From positions 1,536,001 to 1,600,000 of the forward strand of contig NZ_JAQNDL010000003.1 of NCBI RefSeq assembly GCF_028368995.1: a DNA stretch of 64,000 bases. Reading direction: 5' to 3'. Below the pieces are notes generated by a model, which saw only the letters and a list, made by a program, of their open reading frames with translations, was not told the origin of the DNA and did no database searches. Position 1 is the stretch's first letter; each line of letters begins with the position of its first letter. Made by a program: the position numbers and the translations under genes. Positions 37,409-59,041 of this stretch are shown one piece after another. The DNA is from Nannocystis bainbridge. GTDB lineage: Bacteria > Myxococcota_A > Polyangia > Nannocystales > Nannocystaceae.

Positions 37409-38017
37409 ATGGCGAGCGAAGACACCAAGTCGGCCCGGACGCGCGAGCGGATCCTCGACGCGGCCGCGCGCGTGCTCAGCCGCAAGGGCTACGCCGGCAC
37501 CCGCCTGGCCGACGTGGCCGAGGCCGCCGAGGTCCAGGCGCCGGCGATCTACTACTACTTCGAGTCGCGCGACGCGCTGATCGAGGAGGTCATGTGGGTC
37601 GGGGCCCACCGCGTGCGCATGCACGTCGAGGAGGTGCTGGCCGCCCTGCCCGCCGACACCAGCCCGTTCGACAAGCTGCTCGAGGCGGTCGCCGCCCACC
37701 TCCGCTACGAGCTCCACATCTCCGATTACACCACCGCGTCGATCCGCAACGCCAACCAGGTCCCCGAGCAGCTGCGCGTGCGCCCGGCCGCCGAGGAGGC
37801 CACCTACAGCCGCCTGTGGCGCGACCTGTTCGCCCAGGCCCAGGCCGCCGGCCAGCTGCGCCCGGGCCTCGACATCAACGTCTCGCGCCTGCTCCTGCTC
37901 GGCTCGATGAATTGGGCCGCCGAGTGGTGGAACCCGCGCATGCGCTCGCTCGCCGACCTCGTCAAGGCGACGCAAGAATTCGTCCGCTTCGGCATGGGCA
38001 ACCCGGCGCAGTTCTGA
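37409..38017 (+). CDS. TetR/AcrR family regulator
   Basis: TRERILDAAA...GTRLADVAEAAEVQAPAIYYYFESRDALI; C-terminal NWAAEWW. Confidence 0.95.
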   Translation: MASEDTKSARTRERILDAAARVLSRKGYAGTRLADVAEAAEVQAPAIYYYFESRDALIEEVMWVGAHRVRMHVEEVLAALPADTSPFDKLLEAVAAHLRYELHISDYTTASIRNANQVPEQLRVRPAAEEATYSRLWRDLFAQAQAAGQLRPGLDINVSRLLLLGSMNWAAEWWNPRMRSLADLVKATQEFVRFGMGNPAQF

Positions 38018-38196
38018 CGGGTCACCCCGTCGAGGCCCGGCCCGCTCGCGCGACACACACCGCGACGACAGCGGGAGCGATGCTGCTCCGAACATCGAGC
38101 CATCATGCTCCAGGCACCACGGTCCGGACGGCATCTCCTCGCCGCACGCTCGGCCATGGTCGTCGCTGACGGCCGCGGCGATGGTAGAGTGCACGC

Positions 38197-38667
38197 ATGC
38201 GCCTCGCCTGCGTGCTCGTCACCGTGCTGGCCGCTTGCCAGGGCATCGAGCCTCCACCGGCCGAGTGCCCGCGCGACAGCCTGCTCGACGACCGCCTTCC
38301 GCTCTACCCCGACATGGAGGTGCGGTCGACCGGCGCGACGACCCGCGGCCGGCAGGACCACAACGGCTACGCCGCGACCGTGGCCGCGCCGTTCGCCCGC
38401 GTGCGCGAGTTCTACGCCCGCTGCCTGCGCGCCGAGCCGCTCGGCAACGACGACCACGCGCTGTTCCGCCGGACCGTCGTCGGCGCGTGGAGCGACCCGG
38501 GCGTCGACATCAAGGGGCCCGTCTTTCGTCCCGAAGACATGACCGACGTCATCCGCCTCCACCGCGCCGACGACGGAACCACTCGCATGACCCTGTCGGT
38601 GTCGTTGCCGTGGGGCCGCGGCGACCCGCGCAACGACGCCTACCGCCGCTCGTGGCCCGACTATTGA
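38197..38667 (+). CDS. Hypothetical lipoprotein
   Basis: Lipobox LAAC, 156 aa. Confidence 0.65.
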   Translation: MRLACVLVTVLAACQGIEPPPAECPRDSLLDDRLPLYPDMEVRSTGATTRGRQDHNGYAATVAAPFARVREFYARCLRAEPLGNDDHALFRRTVVGAWSDPGVDIKGPVFRPEDMTDVIRLHRADDGTTRMTLSVSLPWGRGDPRNDAYRRSWPDY

Positions 38668-38676
38668 GGCGGCGAA

Positions 38677-38705
38677 CCGACCGGGAGCGCTCCGCTCCCG
38701 GTCGG
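38677..38705. terminator. Perfect hairpin between convergent genes
   Basis: CCGACCGGGAGCG-CTC-CGCTCCCGGTCGG, 13-bp perfect stem. Confidence 0.7.
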
Positions 38706-38713
38706 GCCGCGAA

Positions 38714-40900
38714 TCACTCGTAGCGTTCGCCGCGCTCGGCCTTCGCCACCAGCGACGCCGGCGGCTCGAAGTGCGGCCCGTACGCCGCAGCCAGCGCGCG
38801 CGCCCGCTGCACGAACCCGCGCAGCCCGCCCTCGTATTGATTGATGTACTGCAACACCCCGCCGGTCCACGCCGGGAAGCCGATGCCGTAGATCGAGCCG
38901 ATGTTGGCGTCGGCCGCCGAGGTCAGCACATTGTCGTCGACGCAGCGCACCGTGTCGATCGCCTCGGCGAACAGCATCCGCTCCTGCAAGTCGATGAACG
39001 GCAGCTCCTTGCTGCCCGAGGCGAACGCCTCGCGCACCCCCGGCCAGATGCCGACGCGCTTGCCCGCCGCGTCGTACTCGTAGAACCCGCCGCCGGTCGA
39101 GCGGCCCTTGCGACCGAGCTCGTCGATCATGCGGTCGACCACCGCCTCGGCCCCGTGCGCGACCCACGTCTTGCCCTGCGCCTCCTCGGCCTTGCGCGTC
39201 TCCTGGCGGATCTTCTGCGTCAGCGTGATCGTCAGCTCGTCGAGCAGCTGCAGCGCCCCCGCCGGATAGCCGGCTTGCAGCGCCGCCTGCTCGATCGTCG
39301 CCGGCTCCACGCCCTCGCCGACGGCCGCCACCGCCTCGTTGATGAACTTGCCGATCACCCGCGACGTGAAGAACCCGCGCGCGTCGTTGACCACGATCGG
39401 CGTCTTGCGGATCTGCAGCACGAAGTCGAACACCTTGGCCAGCACCGCGTCCGACGTGTTCTTGCCGCGCACGATCTCGACCAGCTGCATCTTGTCGACC
39501 GGCGAGAAGAAGTGGATCCCGATGAAATCGGCCGGCCGCTGCACCCCCTCGGCCAGCAGCGCGATCGGCAGCGTCGAAGTGTTCGAGCCCAGCACCGCGG
39601 TCGGCTCCACGTACGGCTCGATCTCTTTGAAGACTTTGTGCTTGAGCTCGACGCTCTCGAACACCGCCTCGATCACGAAATCGACCCCCGTGAAGTCCTG
39701 CGGGTCCTCGGTCGCGTGGATGCGGGCCAGCAGCGCGTCGGCCTTGTCCTGGGTGGTCTTGCCGCGCTCGACCGCCTTCTGCTCGAGCTTGACCGCGTAG
39801 CTCTTGCCCTTCTGGGCCCCTGCCAGCGTCACGTCCTTGAGCACCACCTCGATCCCCGCCTTGGCCGCGACGTAGGCGATCGCCGCGCCCATCATGCCGG
39901 CGCCGATCACCCCGACCTTCTTGGCCTGGAACTTGGGGAACCCCGCCGGTCGGCTGGCGCCAGCGTTGATCTTCTGCAGGTCGAAGAAGAACGCCCCGAT
40001 CATGTTCTTCGCCACCTGGCCGGTCGTGAGGCTGACCAGATAGCGGGTCTCGATCAGCGACGCCGTGTCGAAATCGACCAGCGAGCCCTCGACCGCCGCC
40101 GCGAGGGCGGCCCGCGGCGCCGGCATCGGCGCGCCCTTGACCTGCTTGCGCAGGTTGGCCGCCATCGCCGGCAGGATGCTCGCCAGCGCCGGGCTGGCCG
40201 CGCTGCCGCCGGGGATCTCGAAGCCCTTCCTGTCCCACGGCTTTGCAGCCTCCGGGTTCGCGGCGATCCACGCCTTGGCTTGCGGGATCAGCCGATCGAC
40301 CGACGGCACCACCGCGTCGACCAGCCCGAGCTCGAGCGCCTCGCGCGGCTTGAACTTGGTGCCCGGCAGGATCACCTGCGTCAGCGCCTTTTGCAGCCCG
40401 AGCATGCGGACGATGCGGGTGATGCCGCCGCCGCCGGGCAATAGGCCCAGCGTGACCTCGGGCTGGCCGATCTGGCAGCCCGGCACGTCGGCGGCGATCC
40501 GGTGATGCGCGGCCAGGGCGACCTCGAGGCCGCCGCCGAGCGCGGTGCCGTTGATGGCGGCGACCACCGGCCGGCCGAGCTTCTCGAGCCGGCGCAGGTG
40601 ATCCTTGACGCGCTCGATGTGGGCCGTCTGTTCGGCCGCGCGCGAACCATCGTAGTTGCGCAGGCGGTTGAGGTCGCCGCCGGCGAAGAAGCTCTTCTTG
40701 GCGCTGGTCACGATCACCCCGGTGATCGTCGCTCGCTCCGCCTCGAGCCGCTCGACGCTGGCCGCCATCGACTCGGTGTAGGCGTCGTTCATCGTGTTGA
40801 CGCTCGCGCCCGGGTCGTCGATCGTCAGGATCACGATCCCGTCGTCGTCGCGCTTCCAGTGGATCGCAGGGGCCTTGTGGGTGTTCGAATCGCTCGTCAT
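38714..40900 (-). CDS. fadB: Fatty-acid oxidation multifunctional enzyme alpha subunit (enoyl-CoA hydratase / 3-hydroxyacyl-CoA dehydrogenase)
   Basis: FFAGGDL, GGGLEVAL, PEVTLGLLPGGGG, GAGMMG, SNTSTLPI and HFFSPV. Confidence 0.95.
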   Translation of the reverse strand: MTSDSNTHKAPAIHWKRDDDGIVILTIDDPGASVNTMNDAYTESMAASVERLEAERATITGVIVTSAKKSFFAGGDLNRLRNYDGSRAAEQTAHIERVKDHLRRLEKLGRPVVAAINGTALGGGLEVALAAHHRIAADVPGCQIGQPEVTLGLLPGGGGITRIVRMLGLQKALTQVILPGTKFKPREALELGLVDAVVPSVDRLIPQAKAWIAANPEAAKPWDRKGFEIPGGSAASPALASILPAMAANLRKQVKGAPMPAPRAALAAAVEGSLVDFDTASLIETRYLVSLTTGQVAKNMIGAFFFDLQKINAGASRPAGFPKFQAKKVGVIGAGMMGAAIAYVAAKAGIEVVLKDVTLAGAQKGKSYAVKLEQKAVERGKTTQDKADALLARIHATEDPQDFTGVDFVIEAVFESVELKHKVFKEIEPYVEPTAVLGSNTSTLPIALLAEGVQRPADFIGIHFFSPVDKMQLVEIVRGKNTSDAVLAKVFDFVLQIRKTPIVVNDARGFFTSRVIGKFINEAVAAVGEGVEPATIEQAALQAGYPAGALQLLDELTITLTQKIRQETRKAEEAQGKTWVAHGAEAVVDRMIDELGRKGRSTGGGFYEYDAAGKRVGIWPGVREAFASGSKELPFIDLQERMLFAEAIDTVRCVDDNVLTSAADANIGSIYGIGFPAWTGGVLQYINQYEGGLRGFVQRARALAAAYGPHFEPPASLVAKAERGERYE

Positions 40901-40922: not shown

Positions 40923-42134
40923 TCACACGCGCTCGATGATGGTGGCGATGCCCATGCCCGCGCCGACGCACAGCGTCGCCAGGCCGTAGCGCAGGTTGCG
41001 GCGCTCGAGCTCGTCGAGCAGCGTCCCGAGGATGATGCAGCCGGTCGCGCCGAGCGGGTGGCCCATGGCGATCGCCCCGCCGTTGACGTTGACCTTGTCG
41101 GCCGGGACCTCGAGGTCGCGCTGCCACTTGAGCACCACCGACGCGAACGCCTCGTTGAGCTCGAACAGGTCGATGTCGCCGATCGTCAGGCCCGCGCGCG
41201 CGAGCACCTTTTTGGTCGCCGGCGTCGGCCCCGTCAGCATGATCGTCGGCTCGCTGCCGGTCGCCGCCATCGCCACGATCCGCCCGCGCGGCTTCAGCCC
41301 GAGCTGCTTGCCGGCCTCCTCGCTGCCGAGCAGCATCAGCGCCGCGCCGTCGACGATGCCCGACGAGTTGGCCGCCGTGTGCACGTGGTGGATCTTCTCG
41401 ACCCGGTGGTACTTCTGCAGCGCCACCGCGTCGAAGCCCCCGAGCTCGCCCATCTTGACGAACGACGCCGGCAACGCGCCCAGCGACTGCACCGTCGACT
41501 CGGGCCGCCGGTGCTCGTCGTGGTCGAGCACGAGCACCCCGTTCATGTCCTTGACCGGCACCACCGAGCGCGCGAAGTGGCCGCTCTTCCACGCGTGCTC
41601 GGCCTTGCGCTGCGAGCCGACCGCGAACGCGTCGACGTCTTCGCGGCTGAAGCCCTCGAGCGTGGCGATGAGGTCGGCGCCGATGCCCTGCGGCACGAAG
41701 TAAGCGTCGTACGCGGTGGTCGGGTCCTGATGATAGGCCCCGCCGTCGGCCCCGATCGGCACGCGCGACATCGACTCGACGCCGCCCGCGAGCACGAGGT
41801 CGTCCGACCCCCCCGCGATCTTGGCCGCGGCCGTGTTGACGGCCTCGAGCCCCGAGGCGCAGAAGCGGTTGAGCTGCACGCCGGCGACCGTCTCCGGCAG
41901 CCCGGCGACCAGCGCCGCGGTGCGGGCGATGCACCCGCCCTGCTCGCCCACCGGCGACACCACCCCGAGGACGATGTCGTCGATGCGACCCAGCTGCAGC
42001 CCCGGGTTGCGCGGCACCAGCTCGTGGATCAGGCCGACGACGAGGTCGACCGGCTTGATGCTGTGCAGCGCTCCGCCCTTCAGCTTGCCCCGCGGGGTCC
42101 GCATCGCGTCGTAGATGAACGCGCTCTTGGCCAT
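40923..42134 (-). CDS. fadA: 3-ketoacyl-CoA thiolase
   Basis: [20 protein letters not shown] and CVGAGMG; directly upstream of fadB. Confidence 0.93.
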
Positions 42135-42180: not shown

Positions 42181-42246
42181 AGAACGCCCGCAGACTTGAC
42201 TCACGGCCGGTGTACGCGCCATCCTCGATGCGAAGGTAGGCGACCC

Positions 42247-43452
42247 ATGGCCATCCGCTTCGACCTCGATCCGGAGCTCGCCGCGCTGGTCCAGCGCACC
42301 CGCGAGTTCGTCCGCGATGTCGTCATCCCCGTCGAGCTCGCGTGCGGCGGCTCGCTCCACGACGCGCGCGACGCCGAGGACATCCGGCGCACGCTGCAGT
42401 CGCAGGCGCGCGCCGCCGGCCTGCTCGCGCCGCACGTCGGCGCGCAGTTCGGCGGCCGCGGCCTCGACGTGCGCGGGCAGGCGAGCGTGTTCGAGGAGGC
42501 CGGTTACTCCTTGCTCGGCCCGCTCGCGCTCAACATCTCGGCGCCCGACGAGGGCAACATGCACCTGCTCGAGCGCGTGGCCACGCCGGCGCAGCAGGCC
42601 AAGTATCTGGCGCCGCTCGCGGCCGGTGAGGTCCGCAGCTGCTTCGCCATGACCGAACCGCCGCCCGGCGCCGGCTCCGACCCACGCGCCCTGAGCACCC
42701 GCGCCACCCGCGTCGCCGAGGGCTGGCGCATCGAGGGCCGCAAGTGGTTCATCACCGGCGCGCGCGGGGCCGCGTTCGCCATCGTCATGGCCCGCACCTC
42801 CGGCGCGCCCGGCGACCGCGGCGGCGCGACCATGTTCCTGGTCGCCGGCGACAACCCGGGCCTGCAGATCGTCCGCGACCTCGACACCCTCGACCACGCG
42901 CTGTTCGCCGGCCACAGCGAGGTCGTGTTCGCCGATTGCATCGTCGGCGACGACGCGATCCTCGGCGAGGTCGACCGCGGCTTCGAATACGCGCAGGTCC
43001 GCCTGGCCCCGGCGCGCCTCACCCATTGCATGCGCTGGCTCGGCCTCGCGCGCCGCGCCCACGACCTCGCGCTCGCCCACGTGACCACGCGCGAGGCCTT
43101 CGGCGGCCGCCTCGCCGAGCTCGGGATGATCCAGCAGCAGCTCGCCGACAACGAGATCGAGCTCGCGGCCAGCCGCTCGTTGATCCTTCACACCGCGTGG
43201 GTCCTCGACACCGGCGGCGACGCCGGCACGGCGTCGTCGATCGCCAAGACCTTCGTGTCGGAGGCGGTCGGGCGGATCGTCGATCGGGCGATGCAGATGA
43301 CCGGCGCCGTCGGCACGTCCGGCGATCTGCTGCTGTCCCGCTACTGGCGTGAGGTCCGACCGTTCCGCATCTACGACGGCCCGAGCGAGACGCACCGGTG
43401 GTCGATCGCCAAGCGCAGCGTGTCGGCCTTCAAGAAGCGAGGCCACGGATGA
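42247..43452 (+). CDS. Acyl-CoA dehydrogenase (ACAD10/11 / LvaC-like)
   Basis: APDEGNMHLL, SCFAMTEP, RLTHCMR and RIYDGPSETH; coupled to the downstream kinase. Confidence 0.9.
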   Translation: MAIRFDLDPELAALVQRTREFVRDVVIPVELACGGSLHDARDAEDIRRTLQSQARAAGLLAPHVGAQFGGRGLDVRGQASVFEEAGYSLLGPLALNISAPDEGNMHLLERVATPAQQAKYLAPLAAGEVRSCFAMTEPPPGAGSDPRALSTRATRVAEGWRIEGRKWFITGARGAAFAIVMARTSGAPGDRGGATMFLVAGDNPGLQIVRDLDTLDHALFAGHSEVVFADCIVGDDAILGEVDRGFEYAQVRLAPARLTHCMRWLGLARRAHDLALAHVTTREAFGGRLAELGMIQQQLADNEIELAASRSLILHTAWVLDTGGDAGTASSIAKTFVSEAVGRIVDRAMQMTGAVGTSGDLLLSRYWREVRPFRIYDGPSETHRWSIAKRSVSAFKKRGHG

Positions 43453-44465
43453 ACCCGCCCGGCCTCGACCTGGCGGCGCTGCACCGCTACTTCGAGCAGC
43501 ATGTGCCCGACTACGGCGGCCGGCTCGACGCGCAGCTGCTCGCCGGCGGCAAGTCGAACCTCACCTATCGCCTGCGCGACGGCGTGCACGACTGGGTGCT
43601 GCGCCGGCCGCCGCTCGGCACGCTCACGCCCAGCGCCCACGACATGGCCCGCGAGTATCGAGTCGTCGCCGCGCTCGGCCCGACGCCCGTGCCCGTCGCC
43701 CCGGCCGTGCTGCTGTGCGAGGACACCGCGGTGCTCGGCGTGCCGTTCGCAGTCACCGCCTTCGTCGCGGGCCGCGTGATCCAGAGCGCCGCGGACGCGA
43801 CTTTATTAAATCCCGACGAGCAGCGACTGTGTGGATTCGAGCTGATCGATCGGCTTTGTCAATTGCACGCGATCGATCCGTCGAACGTCGGTCTCGACAA
43901 CTTCGGCCGCGCCGCGGGTTACCTCGAGCGGCAGATCCGTCGCTGGACCGACCAGTGGGAGCGCGTGCACACCCGCGACCTCGCCGAGCCCGTCGAGCTG
44001 GCCGGCCGCCTGCGCCTGGCCCTGCCCGCGCGCAGCGATCGCAGCATCGTGCACGGTGATTTTCGCCTCGACAACGTCATCCTCGCGCCCGACCGCATCG
44101 AGGTGGCCGCGATCGTCGACTGGGAGATGTGCACGCTCGGCGACCCGCTGGCCGACCTCGGCCTGGCGCTGGTCTACTGGGACCCGCTCACCGAGCCCGT
44201 GCTCGGCGTGCCGCACATCCGCCGGGATACCGCGAATCATTTTCCAAACGCCGAGGCGCTGGTCGAGCGCTATTCACGGCAGTCCGGCCGCGAGCTCGGC
44301 GAGCTCGACTTCTACGTGGCCCTCGGATTTTTTAAACTGGCGGTGATCGCCGAGGGCATCCATCAGCGCTACCGCGCCGGCCTGACCGTCGGGGACGGCT
44401 TCGCCACCACCGGCGACGCCGTCCTGCCGCTGCTGCGCGCGGGCATCGAACGCCTCGCGCCGTGA
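43449..44465 (+). CDS. APH-family phosphotransferase (ACAD10/11 kinase domain / LvaA-like)
   Basis: GGKSNLTY, LRRPP, HDMARE, HGDFRLDN and DWEMCTLGDPLADLG. Confidence 0.92.
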   Translation: MNPPGLDLAALHRYFEQHVPDYGGRLDAQLLAGGKSNLTYRLRDGVHDWVLRRPPLGTLTPSAHDMAREYRVVAALGPTPVPVAPAVLLCEDTAVLGVPFAVTAFVAGRVIQSAADATLLNPDEQRLCGFELIDRLCQLHAIDPSNVGLDNFGRAAGYLERQIRRWTDQWERVHTRDLAEPVELAGRLRLALPARSDRSIVHGDFRLDNVILAPDRIEVAAIVDWEMCTLGDPLADLGLALVYWDPLTEPVLGVPHIRRDTANHFPNAEALVERYSRQSGRELGELDFYVALGFFKLAVIAEGIHQRYRAGLTVGDGFATTGDAVLPLLRAGIERLAP

Positions 44466-44468
44466 GCA

Positions 44469-45649
44469 TCACTTAGTTCCCCCGCGCCCTCTCTTGCGAG
44501 GTGGCGGGGGCGGTGTCTCCGATAAATTGTTACTTGTGGCTCGGTCTACAATGGTATTCGCAGGCCCTAGTGCTGAGAAAATTTGCTGCTGAGCCCGCAT
44601 CGCGGCCGCTTCCAGTACTTTACTCAATGTTCGCTGTCGATCGCCTTTTGCCCGCTGATAACTCTTCTTAAATTCACCATCCGTACCGCGCTCCCAAAAT
44701 CTCTTCACAGAATAATAGAAATGCTGAGCAGACTCATCAGCGGCAAACCCAGCCTCAAATTCCACCTTAATCCCGTTCTTGCGCTCATCGATGGCAATCC
44801 ACGTCATTTCGCTCACAAAAAAACGAGACTCCGTAAAGCGCTTGTACTCCGGGGAGTGGTCAACTTTTCTTCCCGTTAGGATGATCTTCTTTACAGCAGC
44901 GGAAAAGTCTTCCTTAATGAGGTCTTCATCGCCCAGTTCATCTTCATTTGTTACGGACATACGGCTCCCTCGCACACTGAGGGTTTCGTGCATGTTGAAC
45001 CCTTCCATGTTGTGTCCGAGGTTGATGAAGAAGTTGGTACGAGATTCTGGATCCAGGATCGTCGAGAGATCAATAATAGTAGCGTTGACAGGCTCGCCCT
45101 TAGATTTCTGCAGACTTGCGACCATACTCTGAAGAATCTCTGTCCCACGATCTTGAGCACTGTGACGCACCTGAAGCCCAGAGCTGCTTTTCTCGATCTC
45201 GACCGAGACCTCACGCAAAGTCCTCTGAGCTAGGCGTGTCTTCCCAGGATCCACTTCCATATAGGTTGCGACAACGTGAAAGTGATTTTTGCCGGATTGC
45301 GCTACAGACCATTGCTCCCCCGCCGTTTCGGTTCTCTCTTCCTTCAAGAGATCCAGAACCGAACTTACCTCATCGATGGTGAAATCTCCAGCAATTGCCG
45401 CCATCGCACGCTTTCGCTACGTTCTAAAGTGCTAGTCTGGTCAAGAATTTCAGACAGCTGAATCCAGCTGTGCGACATGCGAGCAATCGCTGCAATGATC
45501 TGTTCGCGGCTATCCTCTTTGGGCAAAATAATTCCACGACCTTGGGCAAGTTGTAGCAGCCGTTGCTTGCCAAGCTTGGAAGAAAGCAAAAGATCCTTGA
45601 CGTCCTTATCGTCAGCAAAAATCATTCCTTCCGCAACTCGCTTACCCAT
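44469..45649 (-). pseudogene. Frameshifted low-GC gene, probable partner of the upstream nuclease (GapS4b-like)
   Basis: Two overlapping ORFs (45649-45365 and 45404-44469) join into one ~390-aa frame if one base is added at the T-run 45412-45414. The start overlaps the upstream gene's stop. Confidence 0.65.
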
Positions 45650-49829: not shown

Positions 49830-49842
49830 GTCGAACCTCCAT

Positions 49843-50316
49843 TCACGGCGACGGCAGCCGGCGCAGGAAGAAGAACAGCGGCGCCGCGTCGCCCTTGCGG
49901 TCCATGACGCCGAGCACCCGGCCTTCGTCGATCTTTCGGAAGTGATCGAAGATCGGGTGCCGGTCGTAGATCATGGTAGCGGTCACGACCCCGCGGTAGA
50001 CCACGCGCCGCAGCGAGGCCTTGCCGAGGACCGCATTGGCCACACGCCGCCCGCCCTCGTCGCGGCTGACGATCGGGTCGACGTCGTTATCATGGTGGAA
50101 CGTCTTGCCGACCCAGCCGACCGCCGTCAGTTGCTGCTCACCCGGGTGGCCGGTGTGCAGCACCCCGCCCTCCCAGTCGCCGCGCAGGAACGCGGTGTCG
50201 TCGATCGGCGGCAGGGCGTCGAACAGCGCGTGCAGGGCGTCGGCGGTGCTATCACCGCCGCCGGCGATCAGCTCGTCGAGCGCGCTCGTGGCATTCATGG
50301 CAGTCTCCCTCGTCAT
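49843..50316 (-). CDS. GXWXG / DUF4334 domain protein
   Basis: GDWEG, WVGKTF and TATMIYDRHPIFDHFRK. Confidence 0.85.
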   Translation of the reverse strand: MTRETAMNATSALDELIAGGGDSTADALHALFDALPPIDDTAFLRGDWEGGVLHTGHPGEQQLTAVGWVGKTFHHDNDVDPIVSRDEGGRRVANAVLGKASLRRVVYRGVVTATMIYDRHPIFDHFRKIDEGRVLGVMDRKGDAAPLFFFLRRLPSP

Positions 50317-51404
50317 GTCATTCGCAGGACCGGCTTGATGACCCGCCCGGCCAGCATGTCGGCCGCGGCCTCGTTGATCTGTTCAAAAGGATAGGTGGTG
50401 ACGAGCTGCTCGAGCGGCAGCTCGCCGCGCCGGTACCAGTCGTAGAGCCGCGGGATGAAGGTGCGCGGGTCGGCGTCGCCCTCGATGGTGCCGCGCAGGC
50501 TGCGGCCGCTGGCCATCAGGCGATTGAGGTCGAGCGTCAGGCTGGCCCCCCGCGCGCTCAACCCGGCCAGCACGATCCGCCCGCGCGGACGCAGCGCCCC
50601 GTAAGCGGCCTCGATCACCTCCGGCCGCCCGGTGTTGTCGAACGCCAGCGTCAACCCGCCGAGCCGCTTGAGCGCCGCCACGAGGTCGCCCTGCGCGCTG
50701 TCGACGACCTCGGTGGCCCCGAGCGCGCGCGCCGTGTCGAGCCGCCCGGCGCGCACGTCGACGGCGACGATGCGCTCGCAGCCGACGATCCTGGCCGCCA
50801 TGATCGCCGCCAGGCCGACGGTGCCGCAGCCGAACACGCCGATCGTATCGTCCGGCTCGGCCCTCAGCACGTTGACCACCGCCCCGGCGCCCGTCTGCAC
50901 GCCGCACCCGAGCGAGGTCATGAGCGGGCCCGGGAGGTCGTCGCCGAGGCTCACGAGGTTGTGCGCGGCCGCGATCGCGTGGCTGGCGAACGCCGACTGG
51001 CCGAAAAAATGCCCGGTGAGCGGAAGGCCCGCCTGCGAGGCCGGCGAGGAGCCGTCGAGGCGGCGGCCGAACAGGTTGAAGTCGCGCGAATGTCGACAGT
51101 ACGCCGGCGCCTCGCTCGCGCAACTGGTGCAGCGACCGCACGCGCCGAAGCTCATCACCACCCGCTCGCCGACGGCGAAGCGGGTGACGCCGTCGCCGAG
51201 CGCGACGATCCGGCCGACGCCCTCGTGCCCGAGCACGGCCGGCAGCGGGGTGCCGTAGTCGTGATCCTTGGCAGAGAGGTCGGTGTGGCAGATCCCACAA
51301 GCCTCGACCTCGACCAAAACTTCATCGGCGCGCGGCCCGTCGAGCTCGACCTCTTCGATGCGGAACGGCTCGCGCGCACGCGCGACGGCGGCGCGGATCT
51401 TCAT
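50313..51404 (-). CDS. Zn-dependent alcohol dehydrogenase (aryl/geraniol dehydrogenase-like)
   Basis: GICHTD, GHEG, CGRCTSC...C, GCGVQTGAG and GCGTVG. Start overlaps the upstream stop. Confidence 0.94.
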   Translation of the reverse strand: MKIRAAVARAREPFRIEEVELDGPRADEVLVEVEACGICHTDLSAKDHDYGTPLPAVLGHEGVGRIVALGDGVTRFAVGERVVMSFGACGRCTSCASEAPAYCRHSRDFNLFGRRLDGSSPASQAGLPLTGHFFGQSAFASHAIAAAHNLVSLGDDLPGPLMTSLGCGVQTGAGAVVNVLRAEPDDTIGVFGCGTVGLAAIMAARIVGCERIVAVDVRAGRLDTARALGATEVVDSAQGDLVAALKRLGGLTLAFDNTGRPEVIEAAYGALRPRGRIVLAGLSARGASLTLDLNRLMASGRSLRGTIEGDADPRTFIPRLYDWYRRGELPLEQLVTTYPFEQINEAAADMLAGRVIKPVLRMT

Positions 51405-52564
51405 GCGGTAGCACCGATCCTGCCGAGCAGCCGATCGGCCAGCACGGCCCGCTGATGGGCCGCGTCGCCGTAAAGCACCTCGTTGTGCCGCTGCCGCTTG
51501 AACCACAGCTGAACGAAACACTCCCAGGTGAAGCCGATCCCGCCGTGCAGCTGCACCGACCGGTCCGAGCAATACGCCGCCGCGTCGCTCGCCGCCGCCT
51601 TGGCCATGCGCGCGCACACCTCCGCGCTCTCGGGCTCGTGGTCGAACGCGCAGGCCGCGTCGTAGACCAGCGAGCGGGCCGCGTCGAGCTGGACCATCAT
51701 GTCGACGAGCGGGTGCTTGACCGCCTGAAAGAACCCGATCGGCCGCTCGAACTGGACCCGCGTGCGCGCATACTCGGCCGTGGTCTGCAGCTGCCACTCG
51801 CCCGCGCCGACCATGTCGGCGGCGATGATCGTCAAGATCGCCGGCTCGGCCGCGACCAGCGCGCGCGCACCATCGCCGGGGCTCGCCAGCACCTGGGCGG
51901 GCACGACCTCGCGCAGCACGACGTGGGCCTGATCGCGCGTGAGGTCGAGGATCGCGTCCTGCACGATCGTCACGCCGGTGGCGTCGACCTCGACGAGGTA
52001 GAGCCCGAGCCCCTGCGCCGACCTGGCCTTGACGATCAGCGCCCCGACCTTGCCGGCGTCCTGCACGAACCACGCGGTGCCGCTCAATCGACCGTTCGCG
52101 TCGACGGTGACCTCGGTGTGCTCCGCCTCCCACGAGCCGCGCCGGTCGGTCCCGGCCAGGCTGACCGAAAGGCCAGCCGCGATCCGCCGCAACAATTCGT
52201 CGGCCGCCGGCCCGCAGGCGAGCGCGACGTAGGTGGCGCACAGGGTCACGATCAGGGGCGACGGCGCCGCCGCGCGCCCGAGCTCTTCGACCAGCCCGGC
52301 GATCGCCACCAGGCCCATGCCGAACCCGCCGAGGCGCTCGGGCACCGCCACGGCCGTCCAGCCGAGGTCGAGCATGCGGCGCCACAGCGCCTCGTCCCAC
52401 ACGCACTCCGAGGCGCGCGCCGGCCCGGCGTCGAGGGCCACCAGCCGGTGCAGGGCCTCGGGCGCGCAATGGTCTTGCAGCAATCGCCGCGCCGTGCCCT
52501 TGAGGATCTGCGCCGTCTCGTCGAAGCCGAAGTCGTGCGGTCGGGTCATCGTGGCTCTTTTCAC
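51401..52564 (-). CDS. Acyl-CoA dehydrogenase (probable second subunit of a heteromeric pair)
   Basis: RVQFERPIGFFQAVKH and QLHGGIGFTWE; lacks the canonical SEPxAGSD. Confidence 0.9.
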   Translation of the reverse strand: MKRATMTRPHDFGFDETAQILKGTARRLLQDHCAPEALHRLVALDAGPARASECVWDEALWRRMLDLGWTAVAVPERLGGFGMGLVAIAGLVEELGRAAAPSPLIVTLCATYVALACGPAADELLRRIAAGLSVSLAGTDRRGSWEAEHTEVTVDANGRLSGTAWFVQDAGKVGALIVKARSAQGLGLYLVEVDATGVTIVQDAILDLTRDQAHVVLREVVPAQVLASPGDGARALVAAEPAILTIIAADMVGAGEWQLQTTAEYARTRVQFERPIGFFQAVKHPLVDMMVQLDAARSLVYDAACAFDHEPESAEVCARMAKAAASDAAAYCSDRSVQLHGGIGFTWECFVQLWFKRQRHNEVLYGDAAHQRAVLADRLLGRIGATA

Positions 52565-53793
52565 TTCGACTTGGCCAGGCGGAGCACGCGCTCGCCGAGG
52601 ATGTTGCGCTGGACCTCGTTCGAGCCGGCGGCGATCGTGAAGCCGAACGAGTTCATGTAGGCGTGCGGCCAGCGACCGCCGGCCGGCGCGTTCGGATCGG
52701 TCTGGTGCAGCGTCGCCGCCATGCCCTCGATCTCGCAGGCCAGCCGCGCGGTGTCTTGCAACAATTCGGAGAGCGTCAACTTGTGCTGCAGCGGCAGCCG
52801 CAGCGGGTGATCGACCAGCGCCGGCACGGCCGCGCGCCGCTCGTTCTGCGCGAACGCCCGCTCGCGGATCAGCATCTTCACGATCGCGTCGCGCAGCCGC
52901 GGATCGTCGCTCGCCGGCTTGCCGTGGCGATACGATCGCTTCGCCAATTCGACCAGCCCCGCCGCGCCGAGCGTCGTCTCACTGTCGTCACCGAGCCCGC
53001 CGCCGGCCGACGGCGTCACCAGCGAGCCGGCCCCGCGCTCGTGCAGCAGCGTCGTCATCGCCACCGCCCAGCCGCGCCCGACCTCGTCGAGCCGCAGGTC
53101 GTCGGCGATCGGGTAGTCCTCGAAGAAGACCTCGTTGAAGCCGAGCTCGCCGGTCATCTTGACCAGCGGGCGGATCGTGACCCCGCGGCCGACGCCGTCG
53201 CGGATCGGCGCAACGAAGTAGGTCATGCCGTCGTGCTTGCGCGCGCGGTCGGTGCGGCACAGCAAGATCATCCACGTGGCAAAGTGCGCCAGCGTCGTCC
53301 ACACCTTGTGGCCGTTGACGCGCCAGCCCTCGCCGTCGCGTTCGGCCAGCGCCTGCACGTTGGCGAGGTCGGAGCCGGCCCCCGGCTCGCTGAAGCCCTG
53401 ACACCAGATCTCGTCGGCCGCGAACAGCGGCGGCAACAGGCGCCGCTTCTGCGCCTCGGTGCCGTGGTGGAAGATCGTCGGCGCCGCCATGCCGAGGCCG
53501 ACGATGTTGGGGAAGAACGGCGCGCCGGCGGCCTTGAGCTCGTGATTGGCGATCCACTGGCAATCGCGCAGGCCACCGCCGCCGTACTCGCGCGGATAGT
53601 CGCAGCCGACCAGCCCGGCCGCGTGGGCCGCCTTTTGCCAGGCGCACAGGTACTCGAGCTGCTCGCGCGTGGCGATCTCGAGCGGCCCGAGCGGCAGGCG
53701 AAAGCCCGGCCGCGGCGGCAGGCCGCTGGCCAGCCACGCCTTGCAGTGGGCGCGGAAGGCCGCCTGTTCGGAGCTCTCGCTGGATTGGTTCAT
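52561..53793 (-). CDS. Acyl-CoA dehydrogenase (probable catalytic subunit of a heteromeric pair)
   Basis: WCQGFSEPGAGSDLA, FNEVFF and TIAAGSNEVQRNILGERVL. Confidence 0.93.
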   Translation of the reverse strand: MNQSSESSEQAAFRAHCKAWLASGLPPRPGFRLPLGPLEIATREQLEYLCAWQKAAHAAGLVGCDYPREYGGGGLRDCQWIANHELKAAGAPFFPNIVGLGMAAPTIFHHGTEAQKRRLLPPLFAADEIWCQGFSEPGAGSDLANVQALAERDGEGWRVNGHKVWTTLAHFATWMILLCRTDRARKHDGMTYFVAPIRDGVGRGVTIRPLVKMTGELGFNEVFFEDYPIADDLRLDEVGRGWAVAMTTLLHERGAGSLVTPSAGGGLGDDSETTLGAAGLVELAKRSYRHGKPASDDPRLRDAIVKMLIRERAFAQNERRAAVPALVDHPLRLPLQHKLTLSELLQDTARLACEIEGMAATLHQTDPNAPAGGRWPHAYMNSFGFTIAAGSNEVQRNILGERVLRLAKSK

Positions 53794-54953
53794 CGGCTCA
53801 GCCTGCGGTCGTCGAGTCCCAGTCGTCGGCCGATGATCTCGGCCATGATCTCGCTGGTGCCGCCGAAGATGCGGGTCACCCGCGCGTCGCGGTACATGCG
53901 ACTGATGCGGTACTCCTCCATGTAACCGGCGCCGCCGTGCAGCTGCAGGCAGTCGTCGATCACCCGGCCTTCGAGCTCGGTCGCCAGCATCTTCGCCCCG
54001 CTGGCGACCTCGGCCGACAGCGCCCCCGCGTTGGCCAGCATCACGCAGTGGTCGACGTGGCTCTGCATCGCGTCGAGCTCGGCGCGCATGCGGGCCATGC
54101 GAAACCGCGGGTCCTGGAACGTGCCGATCGGTCGACCGAACGCGGTGCGCTGCTTGACGAACTCGAGCGTCACGTCGAAGGCGACCTGGGCGTGGGCGAT
54201 CGCGCCGATGGCGATCTGCAGCCGCTCGACCGCCAGCGCCTGCATCAAATAGCGAAAGCCCTGGCCCGGGTCGCCGAGCACGTTGTGCTTCGGCACGACC
54301 ACGCCTTCAAAGAACATCTCCGCGGTGTCCTGGGCGTCGAGGCCCAGCTTGTCGAGCTTGCGTCCGCGCCCGAACCCCGCCATTCCCTCTTCTACCACGA
54401 ACAGCCCGATCGCGCGGTCCGAGCCGCGGCCGGTCCTGGCGGCGACGATCACCACGTCCGCCAGCAGCCCGTTCGAGATGTACGTCTTCGAGCCGCTCAG
54501 GACCCAGTGGCCTGCGTGCTCCTCGGCGCGGGCCTGCATGCCCGCGAGGTCGGAGCCGGCGGCCGGCTCCGACATCGCCACCGCCAGGATCGTCTCGCCG
54601 CGGACCGCCGGCGGCAGCCACCGCGCCTTTTGCTCGGCGGTCCCGTGCTGACCGATGTACGGCGCCACCACCCGCGAGTGCAGCGTCAGACACAGCCCCG
54701 GGTCGCCGTGCAGGAAGTTCTCCTCCTGCACGATCTGCTCGTAGCGCATGTCCTCGAGCCCGAGCCCGCCGTACTGCTCGGGCGCCCACATCAGCAAGTA
54801 ACCCTGTTCACCGGCCTTGTGGAAGATCGCGCGGTCGACCATGCCTTGCCGGCGCCAGCGTTCGACGTGGGGGGTCGCCTCCGCGCGGAAGAACTTGCGG
54901 ACCGCCGCGCGGAAGATCTCGTGTTCGGGCTCGAAGATCGTTCTTGGGGTCAT
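53790..54953 (-). CDS. Long-chain acyl-CoA dehydrogenase
   Basis: AMSEPAAGSDL, QDTAEMFF, QLHGGAGYMEEY and RIFGGTSE. Confidence 0.95.
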   Translation of the reverse strand: MTPRTIFEPEHEIFRAAVRKFFRAEATPHVERWRRQGMVDRAIFHKAGEQGYLLMWAPEQYGGLGLEDMRYEQIVQEENFLHGDPGLCLTLHSRVVAPYIGQHGTAEQKARWLPPAVRGETILAVAMSEPAAGSDLAGMQARAEEHAGHWVLSGSKTYISNGLLADVVIVAARTGRGSDRAIGLFVVEEGMAGFGRGRKLDKLGLDAQDTAEMFFEGVVVPKHNVLGDPGQGFRYLMQALAVERLQIAIGAIAHAQVAFDVTLEFVKQRTAFGRPIGTFQDPRFRMARMRAELDAMQSHVDHCVMLANAGALSAEVASGAKMLATELEGRVIDDCLQLHGGAGYMEEYRISRMYRDARVTRIFGGTSEIMAEIIGRRLGLDDRRLSR

Positions 54954-54963
54954 CGCACCGCAC

Positions 54964-56988
<2,025 letters not shown>

Positions 56989-57130
56989 GCTGCCTCCTGT
57001 CTGGCGTCGAATCACCCCTCGCCTCGAAGTCGCTCTACTTCGCGCCCAGGCCCATCCGACGATCTGTGGTTCGTATGTTTCCCAGCAACCTCGGGCTCAA
57101 AAGCGCTCCGGCCTGCGCGTCCATGGCTTT

Positions 57131-57186
57131 GAAATCACTCGAGATTTCGTCGCCGGATCCACTTACTTGCTGGCGACTAGCAAGTA
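57131..57186. promoter_or_regulatory. Two inverted repeats in the roxA/DUF3556 divergent promoter
   Basis: GAAATC-N6-GATTTC (57131-57148) and TACTTGCT-N7-AGCAAGTA (57164-57186). Confidence 0.55.
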
Positions 57187-57358
57187 TACAGATGGCGCCA
57201 TGGAGCGTCAAGCGGGCTCCATGGCGCGGTTTCGCCCGCCGAGAGTTCGCCGAGAGGTGCCCCGGTCGAGGCGTCGTGCGACCCCGCCTGAGGCCGCGAA
57301 TGCGGTGAATCGCCGGCTTCCACCCGGCCCGCGCGCGCGGCTATGATCGCGTGAATCG

Positions 57359-59041
57359 ATGGGCTTGCTCGACCCGATCCCGCCGCCGTACGACCCCCTC
57401 GAGTGGGCCACTCGCCCCCTGCCGGACAAGAGCCGCATGGTGTGTCGCTCGTGGGCCCTCCAGGGCTACGGGACCCCGGTCGCGGTCTACTTCGTCTACC
57501 TGCTCAAGGTCGGCCTCTACGTCGGCGGCTGGATCTTCTTCTGCGGCTTTTCGCCCGGGCTCGGCGACCCCGCGGCGATCGGGCAATGGTGGCTCGATCC
57601 GCTCGCGTTCCAGAAGGCGATCGTGTGGAGCCTGCTGTTCGAGGTGCTCGGCCTCGGCTGCGGCAGCGGGCCGCTGACGGGCCGTTACTTCCCCCCGATC
57701 GGCGGCTTCCTCCACTTCTTGATGCCCGGCACCACCAAGCTGCCGCTGCTGCGCGGCCTGCCGCTGGTCGGCGGTCCGAAGCGCGGCGCGATCGACGTCG
57801 CCCTCTACGCGGTGCTGCTGATCAGCCTGGTGCGCGCGCTGGTGGCCCCGCAGCTCGACGCATCCCTGTTGCTGCCCTTGGTGGTGCTGGTGCCGCTGTG
57901 CGGCCTGCTCGACAAGACCGTGTTCCTGGCCGCGCGCGCCGAGCACTACTGGGTGATGATCGTCGTGTTCGCGTTCGCCAGCCCGTGGCTCGCCGGGGCC
58001 AAGGCGGTGCAGGCGGCGCTGTGGTTCTGGGCCGGGGTGTCCAAGCTCAATCATCACTTCCCGGCCGTGGTGTGCGTGATGACCAGCAACTCGCCGGTGA
58101 CCCGCTTCGCCTGGCTGCGCCGCCTGGTCTATCGCAGCTACCCCGACGACCTGCGGCCGTCGACGCTGGCGACGGTGATGGCCCACCTCGGCACCCTGCT
58201 CGAGCTCGCGGTGCCGATCGTGCTGCTGCTCGGCGACGGCGGCACGGTCACCACGGTGGGCCTGGTGCTGATGGTGATGCTGCACGGCTTCATCCTCAGC
58301 ACGGTGCCGATGGGCGTGCCGATCGAGTGGAACGTGGTCGTGCTGTACGGCGGGTTCTTCCTGTTCGGCGCCCACGCCGAGGTCAGCCTCGCGGGCCTCG
58401 CCAGCACGCCGCTGCTGGCCGCGTTCGTGGCCCTGTTCGCGGTGGTGCTGCCGCTGGTGGGCAACCTGGCCCCGCACCGGCTGTCGTTCCTGCTGTCGAT
58501 GCGCTACTACGCCGGCAACTGGCCCTATTCGGTGTGGCTGTTCCGCGGCGACAGCTACAAAAAGCTGGAGCGCCTGCGCAAGTCGTCGAAGTGGCTGTAC
58601 GACCAGCTCGACGTGTTCTACGAGCGCAAGGTCTCGGTCGGCCTGGTCGGCAAGGTGATCGCGTTTCGTCTGATGCACCTGGCCGGGCGGGCGCTGTGTC
58701 GCTTGGTGCCGCGCGCGGTCGACGACCCGAACAAGTACGAATGGGTCGACGGCGAGCTGGTCGCCGGCCTCGCGCTCGGCTGGAACTTCGGCGACGGCCA
58801 CCTGCACGACGAGCAGCTGATCGGCGCCCTGCAGGCCCAGTGCGGCTTCGAGCCGGGCGAGCTGCGCTGCATCCTGGTCGAGTCGCAGCCGCTGCACCGC
58901 CAGACCATGATGTGGCGAATCCACGACGCCGCCACCGGCGAGCTCGACCGCGGCGAGATCGGCGTCGCCGAGCTGCGGCAGCTGCAGCCGTGGTCGTTCG
59001 ACGACGCTGCCGACAATCGCGGCAACGCGACGATCGGGTGA
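57359..59041 (+). CDS. DUF3556-family polytopic membrane protein
   Basis: WA.QGYGTP, LGLGCGSGPLTGRY, SKLNHHFP, MGVPIEWN, SMRYYAGNW and GWNFGDGHLHDE. Confidence 0.85.
   Translation: MGLLDPIPPPYDPLEWATRPLPDKSRMVCRSWALQGYGTPVAVYFVYLLKVGLYVGGWIFFCGFSPGLGDPAAIGQWWLDPLAFQKAIVWSLLFEVLGLGCGSGPLTGRYFPPIGGFLHFLMPGTTKLPLLRGLPLVGGPKRGAIDVALYAVLLISLVRALVAPQLDASLLLPLVVLVPLCGLLDKTVFLAARAEHYWVMIVVFAFASPWLAGAKAVQAALWFWAGVSKLNHHFPAVVCVMTSNSPVTRFAWLRRLVYRSYPDDLRPSTLATVMAHLGTLLELAVPIVLLLGDGGTVTTVGLVLMVMLHGFILSTVPMGVPIEWNVVVLYGGFFLFGAHAEVSLAGLASTPLLAAFVALFAVVLPLVGNLAPHRLSFLLSMRYYAGNWPYSVWLFRGDSYKKLERLRKSSKWLYDQLDVFYERKVSVGLVGKVIAFRLMHLAGRALCRLVPRAVDDPNKYEWVDGELVAGLALGWNFGDGHLHDEQLIGALQAQCGFEPGELRCILVESQPLHRQTMMWRIHDAATGELDRGEIGVAELRQLQPWSFDDAADNRGNATIG

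Follow-up and report, generated by a model that had tools for sequence, protein, structure and literature searches.

A probable roxA-headed operon for the use of polyisoprenoids in a Nannocystis myxobacterium

What becomes of the fragments that a rubber oxygenase cuts from its polymer? The question is raised by a locus of Nannocystis bainbridge in which roxA stands directly ahead of a string of genes for acyl-CoA and aldehyde metabolism. The DNA examined was a 64-kb window (contig NZ_JAQNDL010000003.1, positions 1,536,001 to 1,600,000, G+C about 71%), and all coordinates given below without a locus name are those of this window. Genes were picked by third-position GC content (GC3) and scanned with Pfam and NCBIfam; the scans covered the 48 open reading frames (ORFs) selected in this way, ORFs failing the GC3 filter being left out. 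The comparisons described here indicate that the locus is probably an operon, headed by roxA, through which this myxobacterium makes use of poly(cis-1,4-isoprene) or of polyisoprenoids like it.

Eight genes follow one another on the minus strand in the order roxA, three acyl-CoA dehydrogenase (ACAD) genes ACAD1, ACAD2 and ACAD3, a Zn-dependent alcohol dehydrogenase (Zn-ADH), a GXWXG/DUF4334 protein, an acyl-CoA ligase and an aldehyde dehydrogenase (ALDH). The intergenic spacings, from roxA to ALDH, are 10, -4, -4, -4, -4, 13 and 124 bp. An earlier note on this DNA had described the first seven genes as co-oriented with overlaps or gaps of at most 13 bp, which the ORF coordinates confirm, and had placed the ALDH about 125 bp after the ligase, where 124 bp were measured. 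Only the genes from roxA to ALDH form one co-oriented string. The kinase, further ACAD (ACAD4), fadA-fadB and TetR genes reported beyond the ALDH are all present, ACAD4 and the kinase on the opposite strand, but two intervening ORFs had been overlooked. A scan for terminators returned 7 sites against 7.9 expected from shuffled sequences, and therefore the ends of the operon cannot be placed by terminators.

The first gene, roxA (54964-57015, minus strand), encodes a dihaem rubber dioxygenase which, judged by its sequence, is of the RoxA class and not RoxB or RoxC. The longest form has 683 residues and starts at GTG 57015. ATG 56988 is the more likely start, giving 674 residues, since it is preceded by AGGAGG and matches the starts of the Nannocystis relatives; the database copy of the protein also has 674 residues. 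The NCBIfam RoxA model NF050033 scores the protein at 1291.6 bits (cut-off 1000), compared to 599.2 bits for the RoxC model and 499.8 bits for the RoxB model, both below the cut-off of 900. The solved RoxA structure (PDB 4B2N) aligns over residues 39-683 with 976 bits (E 1e-292). The two haem c motifs, CSGCH at residue 204 and CASCH at residue 402 of the 674-residue form, align with C191/C194/H195 and C390/C393/H394 of 4B2N, and a first haem motif of the form CSxCH is a mark of the RoxA type (PMC10837239). Equivalents of F301/W302, F317, the MauG-motif H517 and the distal ligand H641 are conserved, as counted by hand in an HMMER alignment to 4B2N, and the active-site columns F338, W323, F322, H538 and H662 (683-residue numbering) are invariant in 14 RoxAs. 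Read from the sequence, the N-terminus MRQGTSRRVGASALAVATMLCTADLAMA resembles a signal peptide.

A RoxA alignment scan of 185,579 species genomes was used to place the protein and its neighbours in a wider context. It yielded 75 loci with flanks of up to 10 kb on each side. Loci whose RoxA is at least 60% identical (68 loci, L001-L067 and L072) were treated as RoxA loci, and the 7 remaining RoxC/RoxA-like loci served as the comparison set. Eight tested proteins of other genomes, at least 60% identical to the RoxA of the window, score 1234-1292 bits with the RoxA model, four proteins at 47-48% identity score 771-842 bits, under every cut-off, and three at 39% identity are RoxC-like. A tree was built from 77 rows, namely 76 Rox ORFs of at least 600 residues from the loci plus the protein of the window, with L049, L064 and L066 left out as split or partial. 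Within it the protein lies in a Nannocystis clade (support 100), itself inside a Myxococcota clade (99) and the 67-row RoxA clade (99), whereas 4 RoxA-like and 6 RoxC rows fall outside the RoxA clade. The tree holds no RoxB row because none occurs among the loci, so the separation of RoxA from RoxB rests on the NCBIfam scores. Family score, conserved active-site residues and tree placement thus bear out the identity proposed in the earlier note, and the phylogeny suggested there as a check puts the protein inside the RoxA clade. It is 77% identical to a protein of Haliangium ochraceum; a second Rox gene (RoxB or RoxC) was searched for within the window and none was found. Purified myxobacterial RoxAs make the C15 keto-aldehyde ODTD, with a specific activity below that of the Steroidobacter enzyme (PMC6311187). 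A published table of strains that carry homologues of rubber oxygenases already lists Nannocystis exedens (PMC10731047), so the RoxA enzyme itself is not new.

The scan also returned several unusual roxA loci. The roxA match of Nannocystis pusilla (L049, 10066-12030) is split and its called ORF is short (654 residues), maybe through a frameshift or an assembly error. In a metagenome-assembled genome (MAG) of Pseudomonadota roxA is tandemly duplicated (L048, 7730-12000), and a Salinisphaerales MAG carries four tandem RoxC-like genes (L075, 730-13621). A locus titled Comamonas sp. KCTC 72670 (L017) has a RoxA within the Myxococcus clade and the Myxococcus gene order; this assembly is probably mislabelled or contaminated.

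Do the genes found beside roxA in the window recur beside other roxA genes? The proteins of the window were mapped onto the loci by tblastn and, separately, called ORFs were clustered at identities of at least 38% and coverages of at least 70%. The most conserved neighbour is the ACAD1 group, present at 46 of the 68 RoxA loci under 19 genus labels. It is followed by the fadA group (25/68, 10 genus labels), the fadB and class-3-like ALDH groups (each 21/68, 5 genus labels) and the ligase group (13/68, 6 genus labels). ACAD2 and ACAD3 occur at 8 and 7 RoxA loci respectively, each under 5 genus labels, all Myxococcota. At least one recurrent β-oxidation family stands beside roxA at 55 of the 68 loci (genus labels were not counted for this total), compared to none of the 7 RoxC/RoxA-like loci when the clustering is used. 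This is the outcome of the synteny check around other roxA genes that the earlier note had suggested.

The order of these genes differs considerably between lineages. The Nannocystis arrangement has the full operon on the same strand downstream of roxA. Minicystis and Chondromyces carry ACAD1 upstream, then roxA-ACAD2-ACAD3-ADH(-DUF4334)-ligase, while in Myxococcus, Corallococcus and Hyalangium roxA is followed by a convergent ALDH-fadB-fadA-ACAD-ACAD-ligase series. Microbulbifer has ACAD-ligase-ADH-DUF4334-roxA, then fadA-fadB-ACAD; in Aquabacterium a ligase-ACAD pair is divergent from roxA and the ALDH lies downstream. In Steroidobacteraceae roxA is followed by a kinase, a fadB-like gene, an ACAD and a ligase, and in Sphingomonas ACADs and a fadB-like gene lie upstream of roxA and a ligase downstream. 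The variety of gene arrangements around roxA cannot be attributed to shared descent, and the linkage of roxA with β-oxidation genes exceeds chance. The link between cleavage and catabolism, which the earlier note had proposed from this one locus, therefore holds, because it is seen at 55 of 68 loci, in differing orders, in Myxococcota and in Alpha-, Beta- and Gammaproteobacteria. One Myxococcales MAG (L064) has roxA-ACAD2-ACAD3-ADH-DUF4334, then a TetR gene (77% to the TetR of the window) and a convergent fadB (83%); thus the two blocks of the window are directly joined there.

Some other families recur near roxA. A gene of the family-III CoA-transferase/α-methylacyl-CoA racemase type, the function missing from the window, is found at 8 of the 68 loci (L058, 16009-17187, and 7 further loci, in Microbulbifer and Aquabacterium). 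Enoyl-CoA hydratases are found at 5 loci, NMO-type reductases at 9, short-chain dehydrogenases/reductases at 19 and LuxR/MalT regulators at 12. Downstream of roxA in L036, L041, L043, L045 and L047 (Aquabacterium and Burkholderia) lie ccmA, B, C, E, F and H with a thioredoxin-like gene; the ccm genes fit the haem c requirement of RoxA.

Which reactions could the operon provide? ACAD1 (53790-54953, minus strand) has all three Pfam ACAD domains and resembles the long-chain acyl-CoA dehydrogenase (LCAD), its best PDB matches being 2PG0, a Geobacillus ACAD (354 bits), and human LCAD 8W0T (335 bits). At the position of the catalytic Glu of medium-chain acyl-CoA dehydrogenase it carries a Gly, which we take to be the arrangement of LCAD and isovaleryl-CoA dehydrogenase. 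The genes of ACAD2 (52561-53793) and ACAD3 (51401-52564), both on the minus strand, overlap by 4 bp, and each protein matches a different subunit of solved heteromers. ACAD2 best matches 4X28 chain A and 6WY8 chain B, and ACAD3 best matches 6WY8 chain A and also 4X28 chain D. The top NCBIfam match of ACAD2 is pimC_large and those of ACAD3 are IpdE2 and pimD_small, all below cut-off; ACAD3 has no Pfam match in the middle domain. From these matches ACAD2 and ACAD3 are putatively the large and small subunits of a heteromeric, α2β2-type ACAD. The two structures are presumably ChsE4-ChsE5 of M. tuberculosis (4X28) and Tcur3481-Tcur3483 (6WY8), which we take to be steroid side-chain and ring enzymes acting on bulky methyl-branched acyl-CoAs. 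The pair of the window is like them in matching different chains and in its overlapping genes, and unlike them in the low level of similarity (E 1e-35 to 1e-38) and in a context that is not one of steroid catabolism.

The ligase (48273-49829, minus strand) has a Pfam AMP-binding domain and scores 556.6 bits (cut-off 476) with an NCBIfam long-chain-fatty-acid--CoA ligase subfamily model. The class-3-like ALDH (46700-48148, minus strand; Pfam Aldedh) best matches PDB 9NXL, a 'steroid aldehyde dehydrogenase' (440 bits), followed by class-3 and fatty aldehyde dehydrogenases (252-297 bits). Further along the minus strand lie fadA (40923-42134), a Pfam-recognized 3-ketoacyl-CoA thiolase gene scoring 673.5 bits in NCBIfam (cut-off 514), and fadB (38714-40900), for an enoyl-CoA hydratase/3-hydroxyacyl-CoA dehydrogenase with Pfam ECH_1 and 3HCDH domains. 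They are succeeded on the plus strand by an ORF of 156 residues with no family assigned (38197-38667) and by the TetR-family gene (37286-38017; Pfam TetR_N and TetR_C_24).

The kinase and ACAD4 genes, located between the ALDH and fadA on the plus strand, suggest how the methyl-ketone end of the fragment might be handled. The APH-family kinase (Pfam APH; 43398-44465 or 43449-44465) probably starts at ATG 43449, so that the two genes would overlap by 4 bp at the end of ACAD4. It matches PDB 9O56 (206.6 bits) and residues 17-351 of ACAD11 (188.6 bits, E 1.8e-54), and has the motifs HGD at 219 and DWE at 241; it is thus of the LvaA or ACAD10/11 kinase-domain type. ACAD4 (42196-43452) matches 4HR3 (190.6 bits) and ACAD11 (164.9-170 bits) above ordinary ACADs (at most 146 bits). 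Its residues R269/H277/R280 and D394 align with R626/H634/R637 and D753 of ACAD11, and the D753N mutant chain 8V3V shows N in the D394 column, confirming the column. A catalytic Asp (D753) in place of Glu and the R626/H634/R637 helix mark the ACAD10/11-LvaC class, and ACAD10/11 and the bacterial LvaA/LvaC phosphorylate 4-hydroxyacyl-CoA and then eliminate the phosphate to give 2-enoyl-CoA (PMC12440821). By these signatures the kinase and ACAD4, a 4-phosphoacyl-CoA eliminase-type enzyme of ACAD fold, are a split LvaC/LvaA (ACAD10/11-type) module predicted to act on 4-hydroxyacyl-CoA.

This module fits a carbon count of the acid derived from ODTD. C1-2 would leave as acetyl-CoA, C3-4 with its methyl as propionyl-CoA, C5-6 as acetyl-CoA and C7-8 with its methyl as propionyl-CoA, so that C9-13 are left as 4-oxopentanoyl-CoA (levulinyl-CoA; 2+3+2+3+5 = 15 carbons), with which the lva pathway begins after reduction to the 4-alcohol. 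At 13 of the 68 RoxA loci a related kinase is encoded no more than 10 kb from roxA. Three of them are in Nannocystis, and four, in Archangium and Vitiosangium, each have an adjacent ACAD with the LvaC signature. A literature search, among the matches listed, gave none that linked levulinate chemistry to microbial rubber catabolism.

A candidate for the reduction of the keto group is provided by the Zn-ADH (50313-51404, minus strand), a benzyl-alcohol-dehydrogenase type enzyme (Pfam ADH_N and ADH_zinc_N) that matches PDB 5TNX (322 bits) and benzyl alcohol dehydrogenase 1F8F (310 bits). Cys39, His60, Cys89/92/95/103 and Cys167 are invariant in 19 orthologues and are presumably the catalytic and structural zinc ligands, following horse-liver ADH numbering. 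The next gene (49843-50316, minus strand) encodes the DUF4334 protein, which matches PF14231 (73.7 bits) and PF14232 (92.9 bits; cut-offs 25). Its predicted structure is a small helix-capped β-barrel (pLDDT 92.2), with no signal peptide evident. The model matches the fold of the unannotated structure 4MVE (TM 0.88) and has a weak likeness to fatty-acid-binding proteins and lipocalins (TM 0.31-0.45, E 5e-3 or worse). Atlas matches provided leads only: a cluster labelled 'lipocalin-like' (0.91) and an actinobacterial cluster of 63 members in which DUF4334 is joined to a terpene-synthase domain, a fusion that was not recovered in a sequence search for longer forms.

ADH and DUF4334 are both within 10 kb of roxA at 18 of the 68 RoxA loci, in three bacterial classes. 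They are adjacent in all of these except L011, and their order is reversed in Parahaliea. With L029, a contig edge where DUF4334 is found without a detectable ADH, DUF4334 loci number 19: 9 in Myxococcota, 7 in Gammaproteobacteria (Microbulbifer and Parahaliea) and 3 in Betaproteobacteria (Roseateles and Burkholderia). The search for longer relatives of DUF4334 gave two proteins, one of which (P0241, 530 residues) is an ADH-DUF4334 fusion. Its residues 1-361 are 73% identical to the ADH of the window and its residues 376-524 are 62% identical to the DUF4334 protein; it comes from a single contig of 2,276 bp, so an assembly artefact is possible. No relevant mention of DUF4334 was found in the literature searched. 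We infer that the DUF4334 protein may serve the ADH as an accessory barrel for handling a hydrophobic isoprenoid substrate, a role supported by the conserved pairing with ADH beside roxA at 18 loci and by the fused protein.

The earlier note had offered candidate roles for both DUF4334 and DUF3556 proteins. The former proposal is strengthened by the ADH pairing and the fusion, but DUF3556 neighbours roxA only in Nannocystis. The gene of this membrane protein (57359-59041, plus strand; Pfam E 5.6e-191) is divergent from roxA, which it adjoins only in the 5 Nannocystis loci, and is a lineage-specific neighbour without cross-genus linkage. An Atlas lead to lipase-maturation-factor-like proteins reached only 0.76.

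How might the operon be controlled? The spacer between roxA and the DUF3556 gene contains, at 57165-57211 on the minus strand, a promoter-like TTGACG-17-TATACT and then the palindrome ACTTGCT-N7-AGCAAGT. It is the best of 4 promoter-like sites in 44000-59500 and matches a sigma-70-like consensus at 10 of 12 positions. When the spacers of the window and of all five Nannocystis loci were aligned, the promoter-palindrome block was nearly invariant and its flanks variable. Six of the 75 loci contain the palindrome without mismatch; in five of them it stands at roxA, and in L002, L049, L061 and L066 it is also found just upstream of a TetR gene. Since it precedes both roxA and a TetR gene in relatives, the palindrome suggests a candidate operator of an autoregulated repressor that would also control roxA. 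The likely repressor is the palindrome-associated TetR of the relatives, which is not encoded in the window: a search there gave only a 36% match, to a different TetR. The TetR at 37286 belongs to a different group from the palindrome-associated one and probably regulates the fadBA block. Elsewhere in the window the roxA palindrome was found only as a 3-mismatch match inside the kinase gene, which is at chance level, 11 of 100 shuffles giving at least 2 matches. Thus no shared operator ties the roxA block to the kinase/fadBA block.

In three Nannocystis loci (L002, 4814-7432; L049, 3936-6545; L061, 3889-6503) the palindrome and TetR gene are followed by a gene for a dihaem cytochrome c peroxidase-like protein of about 550 residues. 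This protein is 27% identical to RoxA and scores 121.7 bits with CytoC_perox, below cut-off. Neither the TetR nor the peroxidase-like gene occurs in the window; there, DUF3556 is followed by Ser/Thr kinase genes instead.

The two overlooked ORFs (45642-46610 and 44469-45404, both minus strand) form a low-GC island between the ALDH and the kinase (44456-46697), with a G+C of 51%, the surrounding DNA being at about 70%. Similarity at the DNA level to Nannocystis exedens and N. radixulma ends at the ALDH stop codon and restarts at the kinase. The interval measures 2,242 bp in the window compared to a spacer of 442-508 bp in L002 and L003, and three further Nannocystis loci hold other genes at this spot. 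Because the interval differs among Nannocystis species and similarity breaks at the edges of the island, the comparison identifies it as a strain-specific insertion at a variable site, outside the pathway. The adjacent ORFs match the paired PADLOC models Hp1 (PDLC03004, E 1e-54) and Hp2 (PDLC03005, E 1.8e-23), which makes them a candidate anti-phage defence pair; an NCBIfam match to GapS4a reaches 34.7 bits against a cut-off of 270.

Taken together, these assignments suggest a pathway for breakdown of the polymer. Secreted RoxA would cut the polymer to ODTD, the ALDH would oxidize C1 of ODTD to the acid, and the ligase would form the CoA ester. β-oxidation by ACAD1, ACAD2/3 and FadB/FadA would then release two acetyl-CoA and two propionyl-CoA together with levulinyl-CoA. 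The ADH, together with DUF4334, is a candidate for reducing the keto group to an alcohol, whether that of ODTD itself or that of the C5 remnant. The APH-type kinase would phosphorylate the 4-hydroxyl and ACAD4 would eliminate the phosphate to give a 2-enoyl-CoA, in the manner of LvaA/LvaC and ACAD10/11, leaving FadB/FadA to complete the pathway. Transcription would proceed from the conserved sigma-70-like promoter overlapped by the palindrome, with the TetR known from relatives as likely repressor. A bolder version, which we put forward tentatively and which may well prove too strong, takes the roxA region as a complete route from rubber to central metabolism with two steps not described before. 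In one, the ADH would cooperate with the lipocalin-like DUF4334 barrel, in some cases within a single fused protein, the barrel presenting the isoprenoid keto or aldehyde substrate; the other would be an LvaAC/ACAD10-11-type kinase-eliminase step. In that proposal no RoxA or Lcp product can undergo β-oxidation without ending as levulinyl-CoA, which is why the kinase-eliminase step is obligatory. If true, bacterial rubber degradation would in general require 4-hydroxyacyl-CoA phospho-elimination, a need so far overlooked, and DUF4334 would gain its first function.

Several observations weigh against a dedicated pathway of this kind. Thirteen of the 68 RoxA loci, 6 of them short contigs, lack any recurrent β-oxidation family, and tblastn finds one or two ACAD, ligase or kinase-like matches at 4 of the 7 comparison loci. 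The comparison set numbers only 7 and families defined by recurrence favour the larger set; moreover the loci are not independent, many being congeneric, and the genus labels were assigned in this analysis on the basis of record titles. Neither an Oxidored_FMN-type dienoyl-CoA reductase nor a family-III CoA-transferase/racemase was found among the 48 scanned ORFs, in agreement with the earlier note, so the route around the 4-methyl-4-ene positions is left open by this gene set. No ADH-DUF4334 pair was found in the 10-kb flanks of roxA at the loci of Myxococcus, Corallococcus, Archangium, Steroidobacteraceae, Aquabacterium and Sphingomonas. That β-oxidation would end in levulinyl-CoA is a derivation on paper. 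The remaining 6 of the 13 roxA-linked kinases, all in Steroidobacteraceae, have no LvaC-signature ACAD in range, and a kinase-ACAD pair at one of the 7 comparison loci, the RoxC locus L073, means that the pair is not RoxA-specific. Finally, in the window the kinase/ACAD4/fadBA block is cut off from the operon by the foreign island and lies partly on the opposite strand.

The last points bear on a narrower explanation, in which only roxA to ALDH is dedicated and the kinase-ACAD4 and fadBA-TetR genes are a general 4-hydroxy-acid and fatty-acid module that happens to lie nearby. Such a module would account for its position on the other strand or beyond a spot that varies among Nannocystis species, for the failure to find the roxA palindrome near it and for the kinase-ACAD pair at a RoxC locus; 4-hydroxy acids also have other sources, such as lipid peroxidation (PMC12440821). 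However, fadA/fadB orthologues (47-69% identity) lie beside roxA in Myxococcus, Corallococcus and Microbulbifer, and also in L064, kinase relatives stand beside roxA in three separate lineages, and ODTD bears exactly the γ-keto terminus that kinase-eliminase chemistry resolves. We therefore regard this explanation as rather unlikely, while still worth serious consideration. A different doubt concerns the substrate, which could be other cis-polyisoprenoids or unsaturated isoprenoid lipids (polyprenols, lipids of prey or plant litter) that a predatory myxobacterium of the soil would encounter and process by the same downstream chemistry. The clearly lower activity of myxobacterial RoxAs on rubber relative to the Steroidobacter enzyme (PMC6311187), the spread of RoxA through genera not known as rubber degraders and the lack of a RoxB partner gene in the window are compatible with this view. 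Yet every RoxA-class enzyme tested so far makes ODTD from polyisoprene (PMC6311187, PMC10837239), the RoxA active-site residues are fully conserved, Nannocystis exedens figures in both columns of the table of rubber-oxygenase homologues (PMC10731047), and in a window of only 64 kb a RoxB gene could lie elsewhere. A substrate other than rubber appears unlikely.

That roxA simply landed among the many β-oxidation genes of a myxobacterium, the neighbourhood being due to chance or inherited synteny, is very improbable. Genes of the ACAD, ligase and thiolase families are numerous, a second thiolase and a fifth ACAD are encoded in the window itself at 15-21 kb, and a shared order within Nannocystis is expected from common descent. 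However, the same orthologue groups are found beside roxA in four classes with differing orders and orientations, four of the junctions are 4-bp overlaps between stop and start codons, and a single conserved promoter precedes roxA. An operon for polyisoprenoid use thus remains the probable reading of the locus.

Outside the roxA region the window contains a second lipid-type cluster (14242-21083), made up of a TetR gene, a thiolase (51% to fadA), a 2-oxoadipate dioxygenase/decarboxylase-like protein and the fifth ACAD. Beside the TetR gene at 37286, positions 35695-37284 encode a protein of 529 residues with weak matches to both copper type II ascorbate-dependent monooxygenase domains (PHM/DBH family), which is unusual for a bacterium. 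Positions 1-6280 hold a cytochrome P450 gene, truncated at the edge of the window, along with hsdM and hsdS for type I restriction-modification. A resistance-nodulation-division (RND) efflux pump (AcrB family, 1189 residues) and a membrane-fusion protein are encoded at 27554-32523, beside a further TetR gene (26879-27520).

Knowledge of what happens downstream of RoxA in Gram-negative rubber degraders consists solely of genome-wide candidate lists. The roxA-linked set narrows dozens of paralogues down to an LCAD-like ACAD, a two-subunit ACAD, an ALDH, a ligase, the ADH-DUF4334 pair, a kinase-eliminase and a candidate operator and repressor. It offers a first functional context for DUF4334. It also predicts how the methyl-ketone end of rubber fragments would be metabolized, which is relevant to engineering the bioconversion of rubber and tyre waste.

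Compared to RoxA of Steroidobacter cummioxidans 35Y (4B2N) and the characterized myxobacterial RoxAs, the protein of the window aligns from end to end and keeps their motifs and residues. Its gene differs in heading a seven-gene catabolic string, undescribed for any RoxA in the literature searched: the roxA gene neighbourhood is not described in the excerpts of PMC5979037, PMC6460296, PMC6311187, PMC10837239, PMC10731047 and PMC6163206, and a prior description is possible. The enzyme that oxidizes ODTD was unknown according to the 2018 Steroidobacter genome paper (PMC5979037). A parallel is seen in the proven degrader Rhizobacter gummiphilus NS21, whose latA2 is a RoxA orthologue needed for growth on rubber and induced 7-fold (PMC6460296). 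By the coordinates in Table 3 of that paper, latA2 has an ALDH, the only annotated α-methylacyl-CoA racemase and an ACAD at distances of up to about 5 kb. Among the scanned loci, the betaproteobacterial L041, L043, L045, L047 and L072 are alike in having the ligase, an ACAD1-group gene and an ALDH around roxA. They differ from the window in that the ALDH is of another family (29% identity), racemase-type and ccm genes are present, the arrangement is divergent instead of a single operon, and the ADH-DUF4334 pair is missing except in Roseateles.

In the lcp clusters of actinomycetes, lcp occurs with oxiAB and the TetR-type regulator gene lcpR. As in the window, these clusters associate the gene of an extracellular rubber oxygenase with aldehyde oxidation and with a regulator of TetR type; unlike the window, they have an unrelated oxygenase (the b-type cytochrome Lcp), the molybdenum hydroxylase OxiAB or other ALDHs, and longer products. 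In the atu/liu (acyclic terpene utilisation) system of Pseudomonas, geranyl-CoA carboxylase removes the 3-methyl block. As is predicted for the window, that system subjects methyl-branched isoprenoid acids to β-oxidation by dedicated ACADs and ligases; the methyls of the acid derived from ODTD are at even carbons and would leave as propionyl-CoA, and no carboxylase was found in the Pfam/NCBIfam scan of the selected ORFs. The kinase-ACAD4 pair resembles the lva operon of Pseudomonas putida (LvaA, LvaC) and mammalian ACAD10/ACAD11 in combining a kinase with an ACAD-fold enzyme that carries the catalytic Asp and the Arg-His-Arg helix. In contrast to these, the window has two separate genes, that of the ACAD preceding that of the kinase, no LvaB, LvaD or LvaE is recognizable next to them, and the proposed source of the substrate, a fragment of rubber, would be new.

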